Source: Acutalibacteraceae bacterium
GTDB taxonomy: Bacteria > Bacillota > Clostridia > Oscillospirales > Acutalibacteraceae
Direction: 5' to 3'
Assembly (NCBI GenBank): GCA_045627825.1
Contig: JAZQON010000052.1
Span: 57,380 to 121,379 of the forward strand
DNA: 64,000 nt
Position 1 is the first letter of the stretch, and each line of letters begins with the position of its first letter. The notes beneath the pieces were generated by a model. That model saw only the letters and a program-made list of their open reading frames with translations, was not told where the DNA came from and ran no database searches. The position numbers and the translations under genes were made by a program. This document shows, in pieces, positions 9,800 through 29,900 of this stretch.

Positions 9800-11005
9800 T
9801 TGAATAAGAAAATATCTGTCGGTTTATGCCTTTCTCTGGTTATTATTGCCATTGCCGCCACATTCACCGGAACAATGGTGGCTTCAAAGCAGATATATAA
9901 CGGCATAATCAATAATATTTCTCAGCGTTCACAAACCTATGAATCCGTTGACGAAATAAGCAAGATTATATCAAGCTATTTTTACGGCAGTGTTGATGAC
10001 AGAAACCGCCTTAACAGCGCACTTGCAGAGGGTTATGTTAACGGTCTCGGAGATTCAAACAGCGTTTATCTGAGCGCTTCCGAGTATGCGGATTATACCG
10101 CCAAGCTCAACGGAGGGCTTACGGGAATAGGCATTGAGACCGCATATGATTACAGCAGGGGCGCTCTTGTGATTACGAATGTTTATCCCGATTCGCCTGC
10201 CGAAAAAGCGGAGCTTAAGGTATTCGACGAGATAACCGCCGTGAACGATATAACCGTTACAAGAAGCAATTATACGGCGCTCCGTGAGAAATTTTACGGA
10301 AACCGCCTTACATCTGTTCGGATTGAATACGAAAGAGACGGCGACACAAAGGTTGTTGAACCGCTTCTCGGATTTTCGATTCCGAGTGTTACGGGATATC
10401 TTAACGGAAATGTAGGTTATATCAGGATAAACGGATTTTTCAAAAATACCGCCGATGAATTCAAAACCCTCATCACAAAGCTTCGTGATGAGGGAGCGGA
10501 AAGCGTTATTTTCGATGTCAGGGGTACTTCGGAGGGAACGGTTGACTATGCCGCAAAGGTGATAGATGTTATCGTTCCGGCAATATCCGGAAATATTGCC
10601 GTTGCAAAGGATAAGAACGGCAATGTATATAAGGATAAAATTTATACCGCCGAAAACAGCAGTTTTATTATGCCGAGCGTTGTGCTGATAAACTCATATA
10701 CCAAGGGTGCGGCTGAGCTTTTCGCCTGCGATATGAGGGATATCAATCAGGCACAGCTTGTGGGAACAAAGACTGCCGGAGTAGGCACAATGCAGGAGCT
10801 TTTTGCTCTTGAGGACGGCGGTGCGGTATTGCTTACCGTTGCACTCGTTGAGCCTAAGGGCGGCGCAGATGCCGTATATGAGGGCATCGGAGTTGCTCCC
10901 ACCGTTGAGATTACTCTCAGCCACGGTGATGAATCAAACTTCGCACTTCTGACCGCCGAGCAGGATAATCAGCTTTCAGCGGCATTCAATATGCTTTCGG
11001 CGTAA
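9800..11005 (+). CDS. S41 (C-terminal processing peptidase, CtpA/CtpB-like) homolog with PDZ domain, apparently catalytically inactive
   Basis: TTG start 9 nt after AGGAGA. N-terminal TM, PDZ (GIGIE...VITNVYPDSPAEKAEL) and an S41 core. The GSASASE and FGKG motifs read YTKGAAE and AGVG, so Ser becomes Gly303 and Lys becomes Val328. Confidence 0.8.
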   Translation: MNKKISVGLCLSLVIIAIAATFTGTMVASKQIYNGIINNISQRSQTYESVDEISKIISSYFYGSVDDRNRLNSALAEGYVNGLGDSNSVYLSASEYADYTAKLNGGLTGIGIETAYDYSRGALVITNVYPDSPAEKAELKVFDEITAVNDITVTRSNYTALREKFYGNRLTSVRIEYERDGDTKVVEPLLGFSIPSVTGYLNGNVGYIRINGFFKNTADEFKTLITKLRDEGAESVIFDVRGTSEGTVDYAAKVIDVIVPAISGNIAVAKDKNGNVYKDKIYTAENSSFIMPSVVLINSYTKGAAELFACDMRDINQAQLVGTKTAGVGTMQELFALEDGGAVLLTVALVEPKGGADAVYEGIGVAPTVEITLSHGDESNFALLTAEQDNQLSAAFNMLSA

Positions 11006-11009
11006 AAGT

Positions 11010-11600
11010 TTAAAATTTCCTTCTCAGCTCGGTTACTTTTCCTACTATCGTAACGGGCAGAGAAATGATATCCTCATTCATGTAAAACATCGGCTCATAA
11101 GCCGGATTTTCGGGCACCAGCATTATGCCGGTGTCCTTTTTTATTATTTTTTTAACCGTTGCATCGTTGCCATTGACAAGCACAACGGCGATTTCTCCGT
11201 TTTCAATATCGGGCTGACGGCGAACAATAACCGTGTCTCCGTCTCTGAATAGCGGAAACATACTGTCGCCTTTTATTTTCAGTCCGAAATATTCGCCCTT
11301 TGAGGCGATATCAGCGCTAATTTCTTCGTAATCCAATATATCCTCTATTGCCTCCATCGGTATTCCCGCTCTCACATATCCGAGAACGGGAATTGTTATT
11401 TTTTCGTCAAAATCCTCACTGCCGATAAGCTTGCCTACCGATATGCCGAAAATTTTCGAAAGTGTCAGCAAGCTGTTGTTATCGGGTGAGGTTTTTCCTT
11501 TTTCCCATTGACTGACTGCCGTCTGGTGAACATGGCATAACTCTGCAAGCTCACGCTGAGAAAGATTTTTCTGCTTTCTCAATTCTTTTATTATTTCCAT
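11010..11600 (-). CDS. XRE-HTH / S24 peptidase repressor (phage CI / LexA-like, autocleavable)
   Basis: N-terminal HTH_XRE (KNLSQRELAELCHVHQTAVSQWEKGKTSP), Ala-Gly cleavage context (VRAGIP), S24 Ser (GDSMFP) and Lys (TVKKI). Confidence 0.9.
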   Translation of the reverse strand: MEIIKELRKQKNLSQRELAELCHVHQTAVSQWEKGKTSPDNNSLLTLSKIFGISVGKLIGSEDFDEKITIPVLGYVRAGIPMEAIEDILDYEEISADIASKGEYFGLKIKGDSMFPLFRDGDTVIVRRQPDIENGEIAVVLVNGNDATVKKIIKKDTGIMLVPENPAYEPMFYMNEDIISLPVTIVGKVTELRRKF

Positions 11601-11610
11601 ATTTTCCTCC

Positions 11611-11628
11611 TGCCGCCTTAAGGCGGCA
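11611..11628. promoter_or_regulatory. Perfect 18-bp palindrome abutting the repressor gene's Shine-Dalgarno sequence
   Basis: TGCCGCCTTAAGGCGGCA lies directly 5' (in mRNA sense) of GGAGG-N6-ATG of the 11010-11600 gene. Candidate operator or 5'-UTR hairpin. Confidence 0.4.
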
Positions 11629-11652
11629 TATCTACATCTTATTCACGCCTAT

Positions 11653-11681
11653 ATTATGAGCTAAACTATTGAAAATGTCAA
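11653..11681 (-). promoter_or_regulatory. Candidate promoter of the XRE/S24 repressor gene
   Basis: On the minus strand: TTGACA (rc of 11676-11681), 17-nt spacer, CATAAT (rc of 11653-11658). Confidence 0.55.
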
Positions 11682-11710
11682 CAATTTTTTCCAAATGATG
11701 AAAAATTCTC

Positions 11711-11739
11711 TTGACAATCGAACAGATGTTCGTTATAAT
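11711..11739 (+). promoter_or_regulatory. Consensus sigma-A promoter of the lysis cassette
   Basis: TTGACA (11711-11716), 17-nt spacer, TATAAT (11734-11739). It lies about 26 nt upstream of the GGTGGTG RBS and the TTG start at 11773. Confidence 0.8.
11719..11732. promoter_or_regulatory. SOS (Cheo) box, predicted LexA operator
   Basis: CGAACAGATGTTCG matches the Gram-positive consensus CGAACRNRYGTTCG at every position. It sits entirely inside the -35/-10 spacer. Confidence 0.75.
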
Positions 11740-11772
11740 CAATAGCATAACTCTTAAAAAGGTGGTGACAAA

Positions 11773-12405
11773 TTGGAAAGAAGTCTGTTGACGGAAGAAG
11801 AATATTTCGTTTTTCCGTCAGAGGAAGAGATTCAGGCGGCTCAGGGGGCGTGCTGCGGAAGATGCTGTTCGGCGTGCGAAACGCCTGCCGCTTATGCATG
11901 GCGCAAGCGTGATATTGATATGTCGGTTCTGCTTGAAACAGCCGTTAAAAACGAGCTTTCGGAAACGGAAAGAAAAATGATAGAGGAGTATTTTTATAAT
12001 TCCAAAAAGCTTGTAACAATTGCCGCAGAAAGAGGAGTGAGCGGTGCGGCGGCAGGAAAAAGTCTTGAAAGAGCGCTTGAAAAGCTTCGCAATGCGCTTA
12101 AATATGTTGTGATGTATCAACATATCTGTGCCGATGAAAGCATTATTCCGCTTGCCGTACGCAGGGCAGCGGCAATTGCTCAGGCAAGAAAAACCGGCGG
12201 CGAAACCGTGGGTGAAAGACTTCTGAGCCTTAGAATGCGTGAAAATCTTTCCCGTAAAACGGTTGAAGAAATTCTCGGAATAGAGCCTGCACGGCTCGGA
12301 TATATAGAGCGTGACGAAAAGGATATTTCCGGAGCGGAGCTTATAATGCTGAGCGGATTTTACGGTGTTTCAGTCGATTACATATTGAAAGGAGAAAACC
12401 GATGA
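11773..12405 (+). CDS. Dual-HTH regulator: Cys-rich N-terminus, sigma-70 region-4-like HTH and C-terminal XRE HTH
   Basis: TTG start after GGTGGTG. CCGRCCSAC cluster at aa 27-35. LSETERKMIEEYF...TIAAERGVSGAAAGKSLERALEKLR resembles sigma-70 region 4. GERLLSLRMRENLSRKTVEEILGIEPARLGYIERDEKDIS is XRE-like. Confidence 0.65.
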   Translation: MERSLLTEEEYFVFPSEEEIQAAQGACCGRCCSACETPAAYAWRKRDIDMSVLLETAVKNELSETERKMIEEYFYNSKKLVTIAAERGVSGAAAGKSLERALEKLRNALKYVVMYQHICADESIIPLAVRRAAAIAQARKTGGETVGERLLSLRMRENLSRKTVEEILGIEPARLGYIERDEKDISGAELIMLSGFYGVSVDYILKGENR

Positions 12406-12659
12406 CGGATAAAAATGAGCTTTTAAGGCTCGGTGAGGAATATGATGCGGCGGCGGATATAGTTAAGGAGAGAATAGCGGAAAGGCTGAGAAAGCTCAGA
12501 ATACTCCGTGCCGCAGGGAAAATGCTTACCGATGATGCATATATTCTCAAAAGCGAGCTTAACCAGCTTTACAGAGAATATAACGATGCGGTCAACACGG
12601 CTTCATATCTTAAAAATTATTATTCCGATAAAGAAACAATAGAAAAATTACTTGTATAG
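12402..12659 (+). CDS. Hypothetical 85-aa helical / coiled-coil protein
   Basis: ATGA overlap with the upstream gene. Charged helical sequence with no recognised family. Confidence 0.55.
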   Translation: MTDKNELLRLGEEYDAAADIVKERIAERLRKLRILRAAGKMLTDDAYILKSELNQLYREYNDAVNTASYLKNYYSDKETIEKLLV

Positions 12660-12669
12660 GAGTTGAATA

Positions 12670-13425
12670 ATCATAAATAAAAAAATCTGTATTGCTGTCG
12701 GACACGGCAAATCGGTCAGCGGCGGCTATGACAGCGGTGCCGTCAGCAGGGACGGCAAATATCACGAATTTAAAATTGCAAAGGAAATTGCAAAATATGC
12801 TTCGGAATATCTCGGATGCGACCTGATGAATTATAACGGCGACATTTATCTTGTTGACAGAATAAAGAAAATCAATGCGGCGGATTATGATTTCGTTGCG
12901 GAAATTCATCTTAATGCAGGCGGCGGAACGGGAACGGAAACCTATTATTATCACGGTTCTCCCACCGGCAAAAAGGCTGCCGATGTGATATGCAAAAATA
13001 TTTCCGAAGCGCTTGCGGTAAGAAACAGAGGGGCAAAAATCAGGCTCGGCAAAAACGGGACGGATTATTTCGGATTTATCAGACAGACAAAGCCCTGCGC
13101 CGTGCTGATTGAAACGGCGTTTATTGATAATTCCGATGACCTTGCGAAAATCAGAACCGTGCAGGGGATGAAAGACTGCGGAATCGCAATCGGCAGAGCG
13201 CTTGAATCCGTGCTGATGGGCGGCGGCAATCCGTTTGAGGTTGAGGTTTCGTGCCTGAGCCTGAATATCCGAAAGGGCGCCGGAATGGAATATCCCGTTT
13301 GCGGTTATCTCAGAAACGGCAACAAGGTCAAAATTGATAAAACCGATGAAAACGGCAGATGGGGAAGGCTTTCCGACGGCAGGGGCTGGATAAACATCAC
13401 CGATAAATATGTAAGGAGAAAATAA
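12670..13425 (+). CDS. N-acetylmuramoyl-L-alanine amidase (Amidase_3) + SH3b endolysin with a non-canonical start
   Basis: The frame opens after TGA at 12664-12666. The conserved N-terminus KKICIAVGHGKSVSGGYDSGAVS lies upstream of the first ATG (12826). AGGAG (12658-12662) sits 7 nt before ATC 12670. C-terminal SH3b-like NIRKGAGMEYPV...GRWGRLSDGRGWI. Confidence 0.8.
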   Translation: MINKKICIAVGHGKSVSGGYDSGAVSRDGKYHEFKIAKEIAKYASEYLGCDLMNYNGDIYLVDRIKKINAADYDFVAEIHLNAGGGTGTETYYYHGSPTGKKAADVICKNISEALAVRNRGAKIRLGKNGTDYFGFIRQTKPCAVLIETAFIDNSDDLAKIRTVQGMKDCGIAIGRALESVLMGGGNPFEVEVSCLSLNIRKGAGMEYPVCGYLRNGNKVKIDKTDENGRWGRLSDGRGWINITDKYVRRK

Positions 13426-13426
13426 A

Positions 13427-13627
13427 ATGGACTGGAACTTACTGTTTTCTTTTCTCGGTTCCGCAATCGGGTGCGTTGCAGGTATTCTTGCTTCGCAGAA
13501 GCTCACAAATTACCGTCTCGAACAGCTCGAAATAAAGGTGAATAAGCATAATAACCTTGTTGAGCGTATGACGGTCAGCGAGATGAAAATAAAATCAATT
13601 GAAGAAAGGATAAACCATAATGATTAA
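13427..13627 (+). CDS. Small membrane protein (N-terminal TM + coiled coil), possible holin accessory in the XhlA position
   Basis: AAGGAGA RBS. TM segment WNLLFSFLGSAIGCVAGILA followed by a heptad-like LEQLEIKVNKHNNLVERMTVSEMKIKSIEERI. Confidence 0.6.
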   Translation: MDWNLLFSFLGSAIGCVAGILASQKLTNYRLEQLEIKVNKHNNLVERMTVSEMKIKSIEERINHND

Positions 13628-13862
13628 AAAAATACTCGGAAGAATTTCGGAAATTGCCCCGGGAACATGGGTAAGGCTTGCTCTGCTTATTGCCGCACTT
13701 GTGAATACCTCGGTAAAGCTCATCGGCGGTAATGAAAGCTTTGAAAATGTGACCGCAGTGGTGGTTATGGTGGTTACTGCTCTTACGGCTTATTGGAAAA
13801 ATAATTCTTTTACCGAAGCGGCAATTGCGGCGGATGAGATTATGAAAAGTCTCAAAAAGTAA
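13620..13862 (+). CDS. XhlB / SPP1-family phage holin
   Basis: GTWVRLALLIAALVNTSVKLIG and TALTAYWKNNSFTEAA resemble B. subtilis XhlB as I remember it (GTVIRTVLLLIALINQ..., AAWFKNNYVTEKG). Two TMs. 8-nt overlap with the previous ORF. Confidence 0.75.
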   Translation: MIKKILGRISEIAPGTWVRLALLIAALVNTSVKLIGGNESFENVTAVVVMVVTALTAYWKNNSFTEAAIAADEIMKSLKK

Positions 13863-15315: not shown

Positions 15316-16257
15316 TTAGTTATTTATGTGTAATATTTTTTCTCTATATGCTTTATGAAGATTCATTTCAAAATCATGTCTGTTTTTTTGAACCATTGTT
15401 TGAAGAGACAGCCCGGCAAAAAATGATTGGATAGCTGTCATCGTTGTAAAGCCACAGGCAATTAGTGTCGGAAATTTTGGAACTAACCCGGTTTCAAAAT
15501 AATCAATCAAAATCGGAATAAAAAATATTACAGATAAAACGACTAATGCAAATGCAATTGTTCCGAAAAATTTGAGTGGTTTATATGTTCTGTAAAGTCG
15601 AAAAATGGTTTTCAGTACTTTATATCCGTCTGAATATGTATTCAGTTTTGATTCACTGCCTTCGGGCCTGTCACGGTAATCAACCACAACATTTTCCACA
15701 AACATATTTTTATCAATTGCATGGATGCTCATTTCTGTTTCAATTTCAAATCCTTTGGAGAGCACAGGAAATGTTTTGACAAATTCGTATCCGAATGCCC
15801 GATATCCGGTCATAATATCTTTTATATCGCTGTGAAAAAGAATATTTATACTTTTTCTCACTAATGAATTTCCCAAATTATGAAAAGGTCTCTTGTTTTC
15901 TGAAAAATATGTTGAGGATAATCTGTCACCAACAACCATATCTGCCTTTTTATCCAACACCAGTTTTACCATTTCGGGAGCGCTTTCAGCAGGATAGGTG
16001 TCATCGCCGTCAACCATGATATAACATTCCGCATCAATTTCACGAAACATACGGCGGATTACATTTCCTTTGCCCTGCTGATATTCATGCCTGACAACGG
16101 CACCGGCACTTTCTGCAATATTTGCAGTATTATCGGTAGAATTATTATCATAAACATAAATTGTTGCGTTTGGAAGAACTTTTCTAAAATCATATATTAC
16201 TTTTTCTATTGTTTCGGCTTCATTGTAGCATGGAATTAAAACGGCTATTTTATCCAT
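15316..16257 (-). CDS. GT2 polyprenyl-phosphate glycosyltransferase (GtrB/CsbB/DPM1-like)
   Basis: IPCYNEAETI...YDNNSTDNT...MVDGDDTYP GT-A motifs plus two C-terminal TMs. The gene is visibly AT-rich. Confidence 0.85.
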   Translation of the reverse strand: MDKIAVLIPCYNEAETIEKVIYDFRKVLPNATIYVYDNNSTDNTANIAESAGAVVRHEYQQGKGNVIRRMFREIDAECYIMVDGDDTYPAESAPEMVKLVLDKKADMVVGDRLSSTYFSENKRPFHNLGNSLVRKSINILFHSDIKDIMTGYRAFGYEFVKTFPVLSKGFEIETEMSIHAIDKNMFVENVVVDYRDRPEGSESKLNTYSDGYKVLKTIFRLYRTYKPLKFFGTIAFALVVLSVIFFIPILIDYFETGLVPKFPTLIACGFTTMTAIQSFFAGLSLQTMVQKNRHDFEMNLHKAYREKILHINN

Positions 16258-16264
16258 ATATTTA

Positions 16265-18199
16265 TCACACCTTACTAAACAAATAAATGTTTTTATTATT
16301 TAAAGACAAAACTTCTTTTTCTGAATAGTCCAATTTATATTTTTTATTATTATATTTGATTATATTACTGTCTATGGATTCTGAAATCCAAACAATACAG
16401 TCGGGTGTGTATGTTGAGCTTTCATACTTATCGGATGAATTTGTTATATTTATGTACCTTATTTCATCCAAAGACGAATCAATTGCCCAAAAAGCGTATG
16501 TACATTCGAATATATTTGAATACAGACCCATTGTTTTGTATTCATTTTGGTTGATAATATCAATTACATTTTGGTGCTGTTCAAGGCAATCGGTTTGACC
16601 TCCGAAATATCCGACTGGCCTTTTTGATACATCGAAAAGGCATTTTATTGAATTATGACTTAAACCGTTTGCAAATGAAAGAATGCACAGAAATGAAATA
16701 ATTATATTAAACGCAGTTTTCTTTTTATCTTTGATACCTTTGTTTATTATATAGACTATACTCGGGCAAAGAATTGCTATAAACGGAATTTGATATCTTG
16801 AAATATATGGTTCCCATCTCAGAACAAGCATAAAGATAAAGAATGACAAAAATGAACACCAAATATAAGCGTTGGCGACTTTTTTTCGTTTTACAATACA
16901 ATATATCAAAATAAAAAATGTGATGATAATAAGCCATGTGTGCAGTGGATTTGAGGTGGTGTCATGTCCTAAATCTACTGTTCCGACATGATATGCACGC
17001 CCGAGCTCCGATATGGCAACATTATCAATATCCACATTTAAAATATCTGCCAAAATCATTACGGCTTTGTATATACAGTAATTGCTTTTGGTTATAAGTG
17101 CGGTAGGCAGACTGAAAGCGATGTTTTTAACGAAATTTACAATCAGGTACAATGGATTTATCGTGGCTACCAATTGGTTGGAGCCAACATTAGCATCGGA
17201 GATTGCGTTAAATGTGAATATGTTTCGTACTATTTCGGGAGCAACAACAGTGAGTGCTGTAAAACCGGCTATCAGAGGAGAAGCAATAACGGTTTTTGCG
17301 GCATCTTTTTTGGTGATACGAACAATAATCAAAGCTATTGCAAATATAAACATAGGTATGCATACGGACGGCTTTGATAAATAACCGAGTCCAAGTGCAA
17401 ATCCGGCAAAAACGAGTTCAAAAACAAGAGACCTATTCAGTTCAAGCTTATTCTTATTGAACAGTGTTAGGCATTCATATGCAAAAATCAATGTCCATAC
17501 TGCTGAAAAATTATCAACCTGTGTTGTAAACGCTTCAGCAAGCGCAATAGGCATAGCCATAAACAGCAGAACAGCCGTTTTGCTTTCTTTTTTACTAAGT
17601 TTTAATTCTCTTGAAATTGCATAAACACCGAATATATTAAAAATATATGATGCAGATTGGACAACGTTAAAAAATTTATCGGTTTTAAAAAAGACATATG
17701 AATTTAAGTTAATAAATTCGGCTATCATGGGACTGCTTAGTTGGCGAGCATCATTTGTTGCGTAGTGAGCAACGCTGTTGTTTTGTGCCCAGCATACTAT
17801 TCTCGGTAAATGATATGACATTGAATCCGGATTATACGGAACAGTTAGAATGCTTAACACAAATACCGAAACCGAAGCAGCTATAATAAATATTGAAAAA
17901 GCAGTAAAATTTTCTTTTCTGAGAAACGGAAATCCGACTTTAACAATATTTATTTTTTTATATTTCAATATCACAAAAATTAAAAGGATAATATTAATGA
18001 TAATCCAGCTGATTGCAAGGGGATAAAATGTCATTGCAGAAAAAAGAGAAAGAAATTCTGTTATGACATATAAAATAATTGCCCAAGAAGTTACCGCCCA
18101 GAAAATGGAGAAAACATAACTCCTTTTTTCAAATGTTATGCTTCTGATAGTTAAATATAAAAGTAACATAGGAAGAAAAGCATAAGTCAACATTATCAC
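16265..18199 (-). CDS. Large polytopic membrane protein, putative GT-C-type glycosyltransferase partner of the GT2
   Basis: More than 12 predicted TMs. Early loop PYNPDSMSYHLPR resembles the acidic-loop motif of GT-C enzymes, but this is a weak match. Very AT-rich. Start is GTG 18199 or ATG 18193. Confidence 0.5.
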   Translation of the reverse strand: MIMLTYAFLPMLLLYLTIRSITFEKRSYVFSIFWAVTSWAIILYVITEFLSLFSAMTFYPLAISWIIINIILLIFVILKYKKINIVKVGFPFLRKENFTAFSIFIIAASVSVFVLSILTVPYNPDSMSYHLPRIVCWAQNNSVAHYATNDARQLSSPMIAEFINLNSYVFFKTDKFFNVVQSASYIFNIFGVYAISRELKLSKKESKTAVLLFMAMPIALAEAFTTQVDNFSAVWTLIFAYECLTLFNKNKLELNRSLVFELVFAGFALGLGYLSKPSVCIPMFIFAIALIIVRITKKDAAKTVIASPLIAGFTALTVVAPEIVRNIFTFNAISDANVGSNQLVATINPLYLIVNFVKNIAFSLPTALITKSNYCIYKAVMILADILNVDIDNVAISELGRAYHVGTVDLGHDTTSNPLHTWLIIITFFILIYCIVKRKKVANAYIWCSFLSFFIFMLVLRWEPYISRYQIPFIAILCPSIVYIINKGIKDKKKTAFNIIISFLCILSFANGLSHNSIKCLFDVSKRPVGYFGGQTDCLEQHQNVIDIINQNEYKTMGLYSNIFECTYAFWAIDSSLDEIRYINITNSSDKYESSTYTPDCIVWISESIDSNIIKYNNKKYKLDYSEKEVLSLNNKNIYLFSKV

Positions 18200-28910: not shown

Positions 28911-29900
28911 ACTATAAATTTTCAATATATCTGCATTTAGGAAAAGCAGAGCAACCGTAAAACTGTTTTCCTGCATTATCGCCTTTCTTTGCTGTGCGGA
29001 GTATAAGCTTACTGCCGCATCTGGGACATAATTTTTCTTCGGGTGTATCATCGTTATGTTCCGAAGAAATTTCTTCAACCGTTTCGGGTTGGCTTGTTAA
29101 ATCATCGGATTGAGCTGATAAATCAATTGCCGGTTTCTGTTCATGCTGAGGCGGAATTTTTTCTTTTTCAGCCGGTTTTTGATATTTGCGTTCAATATCT
29201 TTTATGTGTGCCTGCTTTATAGATTCATCCGCATTGGTTAGAATTTTTAATTTCTCATATATCTCGTTTACTTTTTCTTCGCTGAGCTTATTCTCTGTTT
29301 TGTCCCAAATATCTCTGATGTTTCCGATTAATCTGTCTCTTTTTATAACTCTCAAATTAAGTTGAGGTTCAGGCTTTTTCTTTATTTCACATCTCTCCGA
29401 AAAAACAATAAGGGAAAACATGGGAATATCTTCTTCAAGATAATTCGACAGCCATTTTATATGAGTTTTATTTTGAAGAATGGGGTTATAAAATTTGTTT
29501 TTTTCTTTATTCGGAAGCATTGCAGTCCAATAATATGACTCTTCGCTTCCGAAAATCCACCCTGAATAGTTTTTGCTTTCTATGACAAATATGCCTTTCT
29601 GCGTGATATAGATTACATCAATTTCGCTTGTTTCGTTGTTATCTTTCGGAACATATACATTTTTTAAAATCAAACCGTTTTCCCCGAACAGCTTTAACCA
29701 TTTTAATTCCTTTTCGGTCAGCTTTTCACCTCTTGCGCCTAACCACTCCGGTGTTCCTATCCCGAAAGATTCTAAAACCTTATCAAATAATATATCAAGG
29801 AGCGATTTTGCCATATTGATACCTCCCGAAAAGCTTTTGCTTCAACTCACTGTGGCAAATGGTTGATTTTATTATCATCCAAATATAATCCGAAGCGAAG
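28891..29900 (-). mobile_element. Putative single-gene cassette (NERD/Zn-ribbon) bounded by imperfect inverted repeats
   Basis: The arms share identical blocks TTCGCTTC and GGATTATAT with a 3-nt indel. The interior is visibly AT-rich compared with the flanking ruv genes. No transposase is present. Confidence 0.35.
28912..29814 (-). CDS. NERD-domain protein with a C-terminal topoisomerase-type C4 zinc ribbon
   Basis: NERD core GARGEKLTEKEL...SEIDVIYITQKGIFVIESKNYSGWI (EID...ExK). C-terminus CPRCGSKLILRTAKKGDNAGKQFYGCSAFPKCRY. An acidic/Pro-rich linker lies between the two. Confidence 0.85.
   Translation of the reverse strand: MAKSLLDILFDKVLESFGIGTPEWLGARGEKLTEKELKWLKLFGENGLILKNVYVPKDNNETSEIDVIYITQKGIFVIESKNYSGWIFGSEESYYWTAMLPNKEKNKFYNPILQNKTHIKWLSNYLEEDIPMFSLIVFSERCEIKKKPEPQLNLRVIKRDRLIGNIRDIWDKTENKLSEEKVNEIYEKLKILTNADESIKQAHIKDIERKYQKPAEKEKIPPQHEQKPAIDLSAQSDDLTSQPETVEEISSEHNDDTPEEKLCPRCGSKLILRTAKKGDNAGKQFYGCSAFPKCRYIENL

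Follow-up and report, generated by a model that had tools for sequence, protein, structure and literature searches.

A 64,000-nucleotide (nt) stretch of Acutalibacteraceae DNA (hereafter, the window) carries, at positions 11010–13862, a compact cassette of six genes, in which a repressor gene is transcribed divergently from a plus-strand string of regulatory, endolysin, and holin genes. From sequence comparison, we consider it somewhat better than even (probability of roughly 0.55) that the cassette is a domesticated prophage remnant, which would act as an SOS-gated holin–endolysin autolysis operon with its endolysin throttled by a near-cognate start codon. The genes are intact, are inherited together with the adjoining ftsEX–M23–S41 genes, and experience purifying selection of the same strength as the flanks. 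We found no paper in the literature that describes this locus.

Gene content and genomic setting

The cassette comprises six open reading frames (ORFs), located from an ORF list and the sequence at the same coordinates as in a first-pass annotation that had been made from the DNA letters alone (lengths in amino acids, aa):

11010–11600, minus strand: XRE-type helix-turn-helix (HTH) plus S24 autocleavable (CI/LexA-like) repressor, 196 aa (Pfam HTH_3, E 7e-17, and Peptidase_S24, E 1e-28; phrog_4, transcriptional repressor)
11773–12405, plus strand: regulator REG, 210 aa, with a Cys motif, a sigma-70 region 4-like HTH, and a C-terminal XRE HTH (Pfam; profile search of PDB chains)
12402–12659, plus strand: p85, 85 aa, uncharacterized and predicted to be helical, coupled translationally to REG by an ATGA overlap
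12673–13425 (frame opens at 12667), plus strand: endolysin with Amidase_3 and SH3_3 domains and no signal peptide (Pfam; PHROGs 435 and 2742)
13427–13627, plus strand: p66, 66 aa, a holin-associated phage protein with an N-terminal transmembrane helix and a coiled coil (phrog_1863)
13620–13862, plus strand: SPP1-type holin, 80 aa, with two predicted transmembrane helices and a charged, Lys-rich C-terminus (Holin_SPP1, 50.2 bits against a cut-off of 27; phrog_263)

The amidase and p66 genes are separated by 1 nt, and p66 and the holin gene overlap by 8 nt. The six genes, their domains, and their overlaps were confirmed as first annotated by the ORF list, the sequence, Pfam, and PHROGs. Among the families proposed at that stage for profile searches, Amidase_3, SH3_3, Holin_SPP1, and Peptidase_S24 were recovered and Sigma70_r4 weakly so; XhlA gave no match.

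Pfam identifies FtsE, FtsX, M23, and S41 on one side of the cassette and M28 on the other, in agreement with the core-gene flanks noted initially. There is no integrase, terminase, capsid, portal, tail, or phage replication gene among the 40 window ORFs scanned with Pfam and the upstream genes recognized by synteny; these are all housekeeping genes (GAPDH, EPSP synthase, Clp ATPase, RuvABC, Der, Obg, MutS2, HtpG, glycosyltransferases, and glycoside hydrolases), which bears out the view that no phage body is present within the 64 kb. No tRNA was found in the window, nor is there an extra (cargo-type) gene between 11010 and 13998. The G+C content of the cassette (0.42–0.44) falls inside the window range, consistent with the host-like base composition that had been judged by eye. 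A reading of the cassette as a defense system was rejected: PADLOC returned generic HTH matches only, and p85, the amidase, p66, and the holin were without match.

Conservation and selection across related loci

One genome per species was scanned for REG, yielding 80 loci (denoted by L and a number), mostly labeled as Acutalibacteraceae or as unclassified Clostridia metagenome-assembled genomes; the window proteins were mapped onto these loci and their ORFs were clustered. Most loci share a recurrent order of EPSP synthase, a PucR-like gene, ftsE, ftsX, M23, S41, repressor (minus strand), REG, and p85 (both plus strand). The repressor is present in 72 of the 80 loci, and p85 in 78, directly after REG. 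Lysis genes follow p85 in 30 loci, of which 25 have the full amidase–p66–holin set; 35 loci are without lysis genes, and in 15 the contigs are too short to decide.

The first-pass annotation had asked whether the same six genes recur in relatives between the protease and M28 genes without phage structural genes. This is the arrangement in L087, L001, and L005, with divergence from the window that ranges from moderate (dS, the synonymous substitution rate, of 0.24–0.68) to saturated (dS of ~1 or more). Simple decay would have been indicated had the lysis genes of relatives formed the terminal module of an intact prophage at this site. That was seen in none of the 30 lysis-bearing loci; in the window no structural or integrase genes, as of an intact or defective prophage, accompany the lysis genes, and in the related loci at most a single BppU-like gene (below) separates p85 from the amidase.

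Between the window and L087 (dS 0.24–0.68), the ratio of non-synonymous to synonymous substitution rates (dN/dS) ranges from 0.010 (p66) to 0.125 (REG) for the cassette genes and from 0.04 to 0.06 for the flanks. For the more distant L001 and L005 (dS ~1 or more), the corresponding ranges are 0.07–0.24 and 0.08–0.15. Overall, the cassette values (0.01–0.24) are indistinguishable from those of the flanking core genes, with ranges by gene of 0.06–0.10 for the repressor, 0.06–0.22 for p85, 0.06–0.24 for the holin, and 0.01–0.09 for p66, the lowest of the cassette; ORFs disabled by mutation, a further outcome that had been raised against the cassette, are thus not what these comparisons reveal. 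Because the ratios resemble those of the flanks, the cassette has been inherited with its neighbors and kept functional over long divergence. The proposal that it is domesticated rather than simple debris is supported by synteny, selection, and promoter conservation (below), so far as these can be read from sequence.

Erosion of the lysis part is nevertheless seen in some relatives. In L006 (2508–3215), the GHG motif of the amidase is changed to GAV, and p66 and the holin are lost; L080 and L082 (10820–11890) keep p66 and the holin and have no recognizable amidase; and one large clade has lost the lysis genes entirely, together with a tail-fiber gene described below. In a tree of REG, lineages with lysis genes branch off at the base and loci without them group in a single derived clade, and in a tree of the repressor the lysis-bearing and lysis-less types fall in separate clades; together, the two trees fit an ancestral cassette with one main loss. 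The repressor splits into two types, with 45–49% and 60–82% identity to the protein of the window.

A tRNA-Val(GAC) gene lies directly downstream of the cassette in 21 of 21 loci checked, including both locus types, and is missing in the window. As a separate observation, this tRNA site (e.g., L002 10940–11015 and L027 13066–13141) is an insertion hot spot for large serine recombinase/DUF927/Mor elements, with such insertions in L002, L012, L031, L053, and L071. In assembly JAZTZD01, a lysis-bearing copy that is not beside S41 and a lysis-less copy beside S41 occur together (L011 and L016), so that either the regulatory module has genuine paralogs or the bin is chimeric.

Divergent promoters and predicted SOS control

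Two consensus promoters lie back to back between the repressor gene and REG:

11653–11681, minus strand: repressor promoter TTGACA-17-CATAAT (11/12 consensus matches), with AATAG-N5-CTCAT (11656–11670) in the spacer and -10 hexamer
11711–11739, plus strand: operon promoter TTGACA-17-TATAAT (12/12 consensus matches), with the LexA (Cheo) box CGAACAGATGTTCG (11719–11732) in the spacer
11741–11755, plus strand: palindrome AATAG-N5-CTCTT, a conserved element immediately past the -10 hexamer, where transcription is predicted to start

The GAAC-N4-GTTC core of the box (11720–11731) is situated between the -35 and -10 hexamers of the operon promoter. The LexA box consensus is GAACN4GTTC in B. subtilis and GAACnnnnGTT(T/C) in Clostridium (PMC4234289). 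A box with at most two mismatches is found at the identical position in 73 of 74 loci, in which the half-sites are kept and the central N4 is variable. Such a promoter-overlapping GAAC-N4-GTTC element, conserved in orthologous promoters, is what would be expected of a member of a Firmicute LexA regulon. The palindrome is perfect AATAG-N5-CTATT in 64 of 77 promoter matches, and a perfect 5+5 palindrome is present in 67 of the 77, a level reached by <1% of shuffles; the version in L001, L005, and L006 is a symmetric AAGAG/CTCTT, and that in the window is a hybrid. The repressor's own promoter has no GAAC-N4-GTTC box; its AATAG-N5-CT(A/C)AT element is conserved across 75 loci, and the divergent -35 hexamers are 28–30 bp apart in 68 of 75. 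Inside the window, both the LexA box and the AATAG palindrome lack enrichment, so that their significance comes only from positional conservation across species.

From REG to the holin gene there is no terminator and no intergenic space. We predict a single transcript under SOS control, for which LexA at the box and a second, locus-specific HTH protein at the palindrome would serve as gates. The latter protein is most likely the S24 repressor, given the related site in the repressor's own promoter, with the XRE domain of REG as the alternative. The two-tier regulation that had been proposed (S24 repressor plus sigma region 4-like/XRE regulator) therefore holds in part: two tiers are visible in the LexA box and the second palindromic operator, but REG is not an upstream tier, since its gene opens the very operon that contains the lysis genes.

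In LexA of E. coli, cleavage occurs at A84–G85, and the catalytic residues are S119 and K156. By sequence inspection, the repressor has A78–G79, S113 (in GDSM), and K150 at the same spacing of 35 and 37 residues. With an Ala–Gly cleavage site, a Ser/Lys dyad, and an N-terminal DNA-binding domain, it has the features of a LexA/CI-type autocleaving protein, and the LexA-like residues together with the box in 73 of 74 loci support in silico the DNA-damage control suggested at the outset. The repressor is not a canonical LexA: it scores 93.8 bits against the TIGR00498 equivalog cut-off of 110.95, the match is limited to C-terminal residues 65–195 (E 1e-26), and the N-terminus is XRE-type rather than a LexA winged helix.

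The repressor mRNA carries a further conserved element in its 5' untranslated region (UTR):

11611–11628, minus strand: hairpin TGCCGCC-TTAA-GGCGGCA in the repressor 5' UTR, directly 5' of the Shine–Dalgarno sequence (folding and covariation)

The 51-nt stretch that includes this hairpin folds at -14.6 kcal/mol (z = -2.9). Two of the eight predicted pairs stay paired despite two-sided changes in five relatives, with compensatory changes recorded for L087, L001, L005, and L006; the hairpin may control mRNA stability or translation. Separately, a subset of lysis-bearing loci (L007, L008, L015, L020, L031, L033, L038, L047, L057, L061, L062, and L071) has a GC-rich, apparently structured leader of ~100 nt between the repressor promoter and the start codon. 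No Rfam family was matched in the cassette or in the four long repressor leaders scanned (L007, L015, L031, and L038).

Lysis genes and the start of the endolysin

The Amidase_3 match covers profile positions 1–173 of 174 (Pfam), and the GHG, EIHLNA, and ETAF motifs of the amidase align with GHG, IHYNA, and ECAF of the amidase Cwp6 (PDB 5j72). The protein has no N-terminal hydrophobic segment, and with a full catalytic and a wall-binding domain it has the layout of a cytoplasmic endolysin, for which the sole upstream start candidates are ATA or ATC. There is no ATG, GTG, or TTG in the frame ahead of the GHG zinc-ligand motif. Canonical initiation is first possible at ATG 12826, which gives a protein of 199 aa that is devoid of the N-terminal third of the catalytic domain, and this truncated form is the one in public gene calls for this genome and three near-identical strains. 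In the segment ahead of that ATG (12667–12825), there are one non-synonymous and 12 synonymous changes relative to L087, and dN/dS is ~0.1 relative to L001; judged by this substitution pattern, the segment is coding.

A ribosome-binding site, AGGAG (12658–12662), precedes ATA 12673, and 'ATA AAT AAA AAA ATC TGT' aligns with 'TTG AAT AAG AAA ATC TGT', or an ATG/GTG equivalent, of homologs. ATA occupies the start position in the window (junction at 12657–12680) and L087 (junction at 9832–9860) and is one codon off in L005 and L006; L001 has ATG. Translation of the amidase probably starts at this near-cognate ATA, which would be weak. The endolysin of the first-pass annotation thus stands as to its domains, but its gene is without a canonical start codon, and gene callers give 199 aa. 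This constitutes an annotation blind spot, in that an endolysin apparently starting at ATA gets called as a truncated protein.

Against GenBank phages, the amidase has no match at E ≤1e-10. Homologs of p66 (42–46% identity) lie directly upstream of the holin and after tail-fiber genes in Enterococcus phage phiEf11 (gp24) and in Monoglobales phage CHVD 5762 (two records inspected); the remaining phage matches are mostly to Streptococcus phages. No XhlA (PF10779) match to p66 was found in Pfam at E ≤0.01. The transmembrane helices and charged C-terminus of the holin are those of a small holin.

Proposed mechanism

In the history that we propose, an ancestral siphophage would have shed all that lay between the lysogeny-control region and the distal end of the late operon. 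What would be left over in most relatives is the CI-like S24 repressor, the divergent promoters, REG, p85, a gene for a BppU-like tail-fiber protein (below), the amidase, p66, the holin, and tRNA-Val(GAC); the clade of the window would additionally have lost the tail-fiber gene and the tRNA. In an undamaged cell, the strong sigma-A promoter of REG–p85–amidase–p66–holin would be blocked by host LexA on the CGAAC-N4-GTTCG spacer box and by the locus-specific HTH protein, most likely the S24 repressor, on AATAG-N5-CT(A/C)TT at the transcription start. DNA damage would activate RecA and thereby lead to self-cleavage of LexA and of the S24 repressor (A78–G79, S113, K150), and the operon would then be transcribed as a single unit. 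The signal-peptide-less amidase would build up in the cytoplasm in an amount limited by the inefficient ATA start, until the SPP1-type holin, with p66, permeabilized the membrane, so that the amidase could reach the wall and the cell would lyse. The parts of REG that might act in this switch are its Cro-like XRE domain, its sigma region 4-like domain, and its Cys motif.

Several points weigh against an SOS-gated autolysis operon of prophage descent. In at least 35 species the regulators are kept although lysis genes are lacking, and in L006 the amidase is degenerate and the holin is gone; selection may therefore act mainly on the regulators. The ATA start may leave endolysin levels too low for lysis. 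The palindrome at 11741–11755 could be an operator or, alternatively, a 5'-terminal RNA hairpin. Descent of the entire unit from a single prophage is less certain, REG and p85 being without phage relatives, and the relatives compared are all metagenome-assembled genomes.

REG, p85, and the regulatory trio

The two genes at the head of the operon belong to families of narrow distribution. The Sigma70_r4 match of REG is weak (E 4e-4, below the Pfam cut-off), and HTH_3 is also matched; in a profile search of PDB chains, residues 49–110 are sigma region 4-like and residues 143–208 are an XRE HTH. The N-terminal Cys motif is invariant (C27, C28, C32, and C35; CCGx3Cx2C). Homologs of REG form 90 protein clusters, and none was found in IMG/VR (2.9 million viral contigs); GenBank phages gave generic XRE matches only, and the N-terminal half of REG has no relatives among PLSDB plasmids. 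The Cys domain occurs in ~41 of 1.84 billion representative proteins, of which the carriers are ~200–256 aa (REG-sized) or shorter and probably partial, and never clearly of another architecture. The structural model of REG (predicted local distance difference test score, pLDDT, of 78; low confidence in the Cys region) has PDB matches only for its separate domains, with the modeled XRE domain resembling ImmR, P22 C2, DdrO, and SinR and the other domain resembling region 4 of SigF or SigL. For p85, there is no family in Pfam, NCBIfam, or PADLOC, no relative in GenBank phages, and no detectable relative outside this locus type.

REG and p85, with the promoter architecture, persist in species without lysis genes, which argues for a role beyond lysis; because of this persistence, they probably set the switch or regulate further genes. 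The regulatory trio of S24 repressor, REG, and p85 is, for the same reason (it is kept in at least 35 species without lysis genes), not dedicated to lysis. One might go further and take the trio itself as the selected unit, an SOS and possibly redox switch for other targets, with lysis genes that are sub-lytic in effect (wall remodeling, vesicles, or protein release) or are being lost from the clade of the window. This explanation is possible, although we hold it unlikely. It would account for the trio and its promoter being present in nearly all 80 loci, for the invariant Cys motif of a lineage-restricted, non-phage family, and for the weak ATA amidase start being kept in the window, L087, L005, and L006, and non-lytic holin-dependent export has precedents (PMC9527704). 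It fits poorly with the amidase, p66, and holin being as constrained as the regulators or more so (p66 in particular), with their lying on the same promoter without an internal terminator or intergenic space, and with the lack of a cargo gene in the window.

A wider synthesis is offered tentatively, and each of its parts is more speculative than probable. The S24 repressor, REG, and p85 might constitute an undescribed, Acutalibacteraceae-specific decision switch that integrates DNA damage with a second signal, metal or redox, sensed through the Cys motif. It is conceivable, at a similarly low likelihood, that this switch drives altruistic lysis of a subpopulation through a captured holin–endolysin pair in about one-third of species. 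Equally tentative is the suggestion that the near-cognate ATA serves as a tuned brake on the endolysin, and that in other species the switch controls other targets.

Phage origin and the BppU-like gene of relatives

Most lysis-bearing loci have one extra gene of 300–480 aa between p85 and the amidase, the sole gene there (e.g., L007 5818–6969, L015 10865–12304, and L027 10842–11768, and ~20 other loci). The conserved part of the protein is the N-terminal domain; the coiled coil differs in length, and the C-terminus is variable. The N-terminal domain has no Pfam or PHROG match and none against PDB sequences or GenBank phages, and a XepA-like reading found no support against PDB sequences. An AlphaFold model searched with Foldseek resembles BppU N-terminal domains, baseplate proteins, and tail-fiber proteins (105 BFVD matches at E ≤1e-3) and also matches PDB 9m8o and 6v8i (baseplates of phages NF5 and 80alpha), so that the gene is described here as BppU-like. 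It is under purifying selection (dN/dS 0.17–0.27), and no other tail gene lies beside it in the related loci. The window, L087, L001, L005, and L006 form a clade without this gene, which has been lost there.

The phage origin of the cassette is made explicit by the retention, in most relatives, of this putative tail-fiber gene ahead of the amidase. Taken together, the BppU-like gene, the tRNA, and the phage context of p66 point to the end of a siphophage late operon as the source of the distal part. The same gene can be read differently, if the cassette is a helper lysis module acting in trans for a prophage, tailocin, or gene transfer agent elsewhere in the genome, which in relatives could release the BppU-like fiber. 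Retention of the gene under selection beside the lysis genes of most lysis-bearing relatives, in the company of no other tail gene, would suit such a role, and SOS control would synchronize the module with prophage induction. No partner element is visible in the 64-kb window or in the 20-kb related loci, however, and the clade of the window has lost the fiber gene, yet its lysis genes remain under selection; we regard a helper role as improbable.

Another possibility concerns the repressor. In B. subtilis, yneA is transcribed divergently from lexA, and by analogy the XRE–S24 protein could be the SOS master repressor of this lineage, binding GAAC-N4-GTTC itself, with REG–p85–lysis as the operon divergent from it. 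The S24 domain is close to LexA, as its C-terminal TIGR00498 match indicates, the repressor gene is divergent to the LexA-box promoter in nearly all loci, and an XRE-type HTH protein of Eubacterium rectale was deposited as LexA (PDB 2kpj). Its XRE-type N-terminus in place of the LexA winged helix, its score below the equivalog cut-off, an AATAG-type element rather than GAAC-N4-GTTC in its own promoter, and its division into two types while the box is constant all speak against such a function, which we consider very improbable.

That the cassette is simple debris, a decaying and functionless prophage end not yet deleted, has only the slimmest likelihood: its lysis genes are phage-type, absent from at least 35 related species and degenerate in L006, and its amidase is called truncated for want of a canonical start, but long-kept purifying selection on all six genes, at moderate and saturated divergence and including the pre-ATG amidase segment, rules out mere debris, order and position are kept in at least 25 species, the promoter/operator architecture is conserved, and the reading is already largely refuted by dN/dS and synteny.

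Comparison with known lysis systems

To our knowledge, host-owned, damage-triggered self-lysis has been worked out experimentally in few bacteria, for example with the alp and pyocin systems of Pseudomonas and PBSX of Bacillus. The likeness of the cassette to these and to clostridial release systems is functional, and REG, p66, the gene order, and the lack of cargo or particle genes set it apart.

In P. aeruginosa, DNA damage inactivates the autocleaving AlpR, whereupon a regulator and holin-type lysis genes are derepressed and lysis follows; this alpRABCDE system stands alone on the chromosome and is regarded as a prophage remnant put to new use (PMC7969949). The cassette is likewise a stand-alone set of a regulator under predicted repressor control and holin-type genes, a resemblance in predicted function only, as read here from sequence. 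The parts are non-homologous: AlpA is an antiterminator, unlike REG with its Cys motif and sigma region 4-like and XRE domains, and neither Phage_AlpA nor alp-related families were found for the six proteins in Pfam, NCBIfam, or PHROG. Here, regulator and lysis genes share one operon, whose promoter also has a LexA box, and the lytic enzyme is a Gram-positive Amidase_3 plus SH3 endolysin with an SPP1-type holin.

The defective prophage PBSX of B. subtilis encodes a holin, an amidase, and a small membrane/coiled-coil protein (xhlA–xhlB–xlyA, with xepA upstream), and is induced by DNA damage. The cassette has the same set of a Firmicute holin (here of the SPP1 family), amidase endolysin, and small membrane/coiled-coil protein. 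PBSX, in contrast, keeps head and tail genes and makes particles, whereas the cassette is without a phage body. The order amidase, p66, holin also differs from xhlA–holin–amidase at the end of a head/tail cluster, as the first-pass annotation had remarked of its endolysin-first arrangement. Further, p66 has no XhlA match and an N-terminal transmembrane helix, and the predicted control here is through an S24 repressor plus a LexA box, that of PBSX through Xre.

For pyocins, RecA-activated cleavage of the CI-like S24 repressor PrtR allows the activator PrtN to turn on holin and lysin. Pyocin-linked holin/lysin lysis and SOS induction have been described in P. aeruginosa (PMC8609362). The R/F-pyocin cassette thus also joins a CI-like S24 repressor to lysis genes, although the proteins are unrelated to those of the cassette, and pyocin lysis releases co-encoded tailocins, to which nothing here is comparable, the relatives having only the one BppU-like gene.

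In clostridia, UviAB is induced by UV. The TcdE and UviA–UviB–BCN5 systems place stand-alone holin-type genes beside a sigma-like regulator for release of host products (PMC9527704, PMC8878733). A stand-alone holin-type gene adjoining a sigma-like regulator is common to these systems and the cassette; they differ in having toxin or bacteriocin cargo and a complete group-5 sigma factor, of which REG has only a region 4-like segment. An adjacent cargo gene, as expected of holin/peptidoglycan-hydrolase (type 10-like) secretion, is absent from the window; relatives carry the BppU-like gene. Finally, phages of Streptococcus, Enterococcus, and Monoglobales have lysis modules of a small transmembrane/coiled-coil protein, holin, and endolysin, with the p66 homolog directly upstream of the holin in the two records inspected; in these, the endolysin comes after the holin, and the module stands at the end of a complete structural operon.

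Many uncultured Clostridia of the gut and rumen share this minimal lysis operon, whose selection signature argues for its usefulness. If the proposed function is correct, it would provide a handle on how gut anaerobes release DNA, vesicles, enzymes, and nutrients after genotoxic stress (antibiotics, bile, oxygen, or inflammation), and on how prophage parts become host regulons. Among the LexA-box promoters of the lineage, the one that precedes the two uncharacterized families REG and p85 ranks with the most conserved.

Other features of the window

The S41 (Ctp-type) protease gene (9800–11005) abuts the SOS-wired module in most species of the 80 loci. CtpA-type proteases in Bacillus and Staphylococcus degrade SOS-induced division inhibitors; a functional link between the S41 protease and the module is pure speculation.

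Beyond the cassette, a low-GC segment (0.32–0.36) at 15316–18199 encodes a family-2 glycosyltransferase and a 644-aa membrane protein without a Pfam family. The segment is missing from the close relative L087, in which the Clp-type ATPase directly follows M28, and was probably inserted recently. Between ruvA and ruvC, a gene at 28912–29814 in a low-GC stretch (0.37) encodes a protein with a NERD nuclease-related domain and a topoisomerase-type zinc ribbon.

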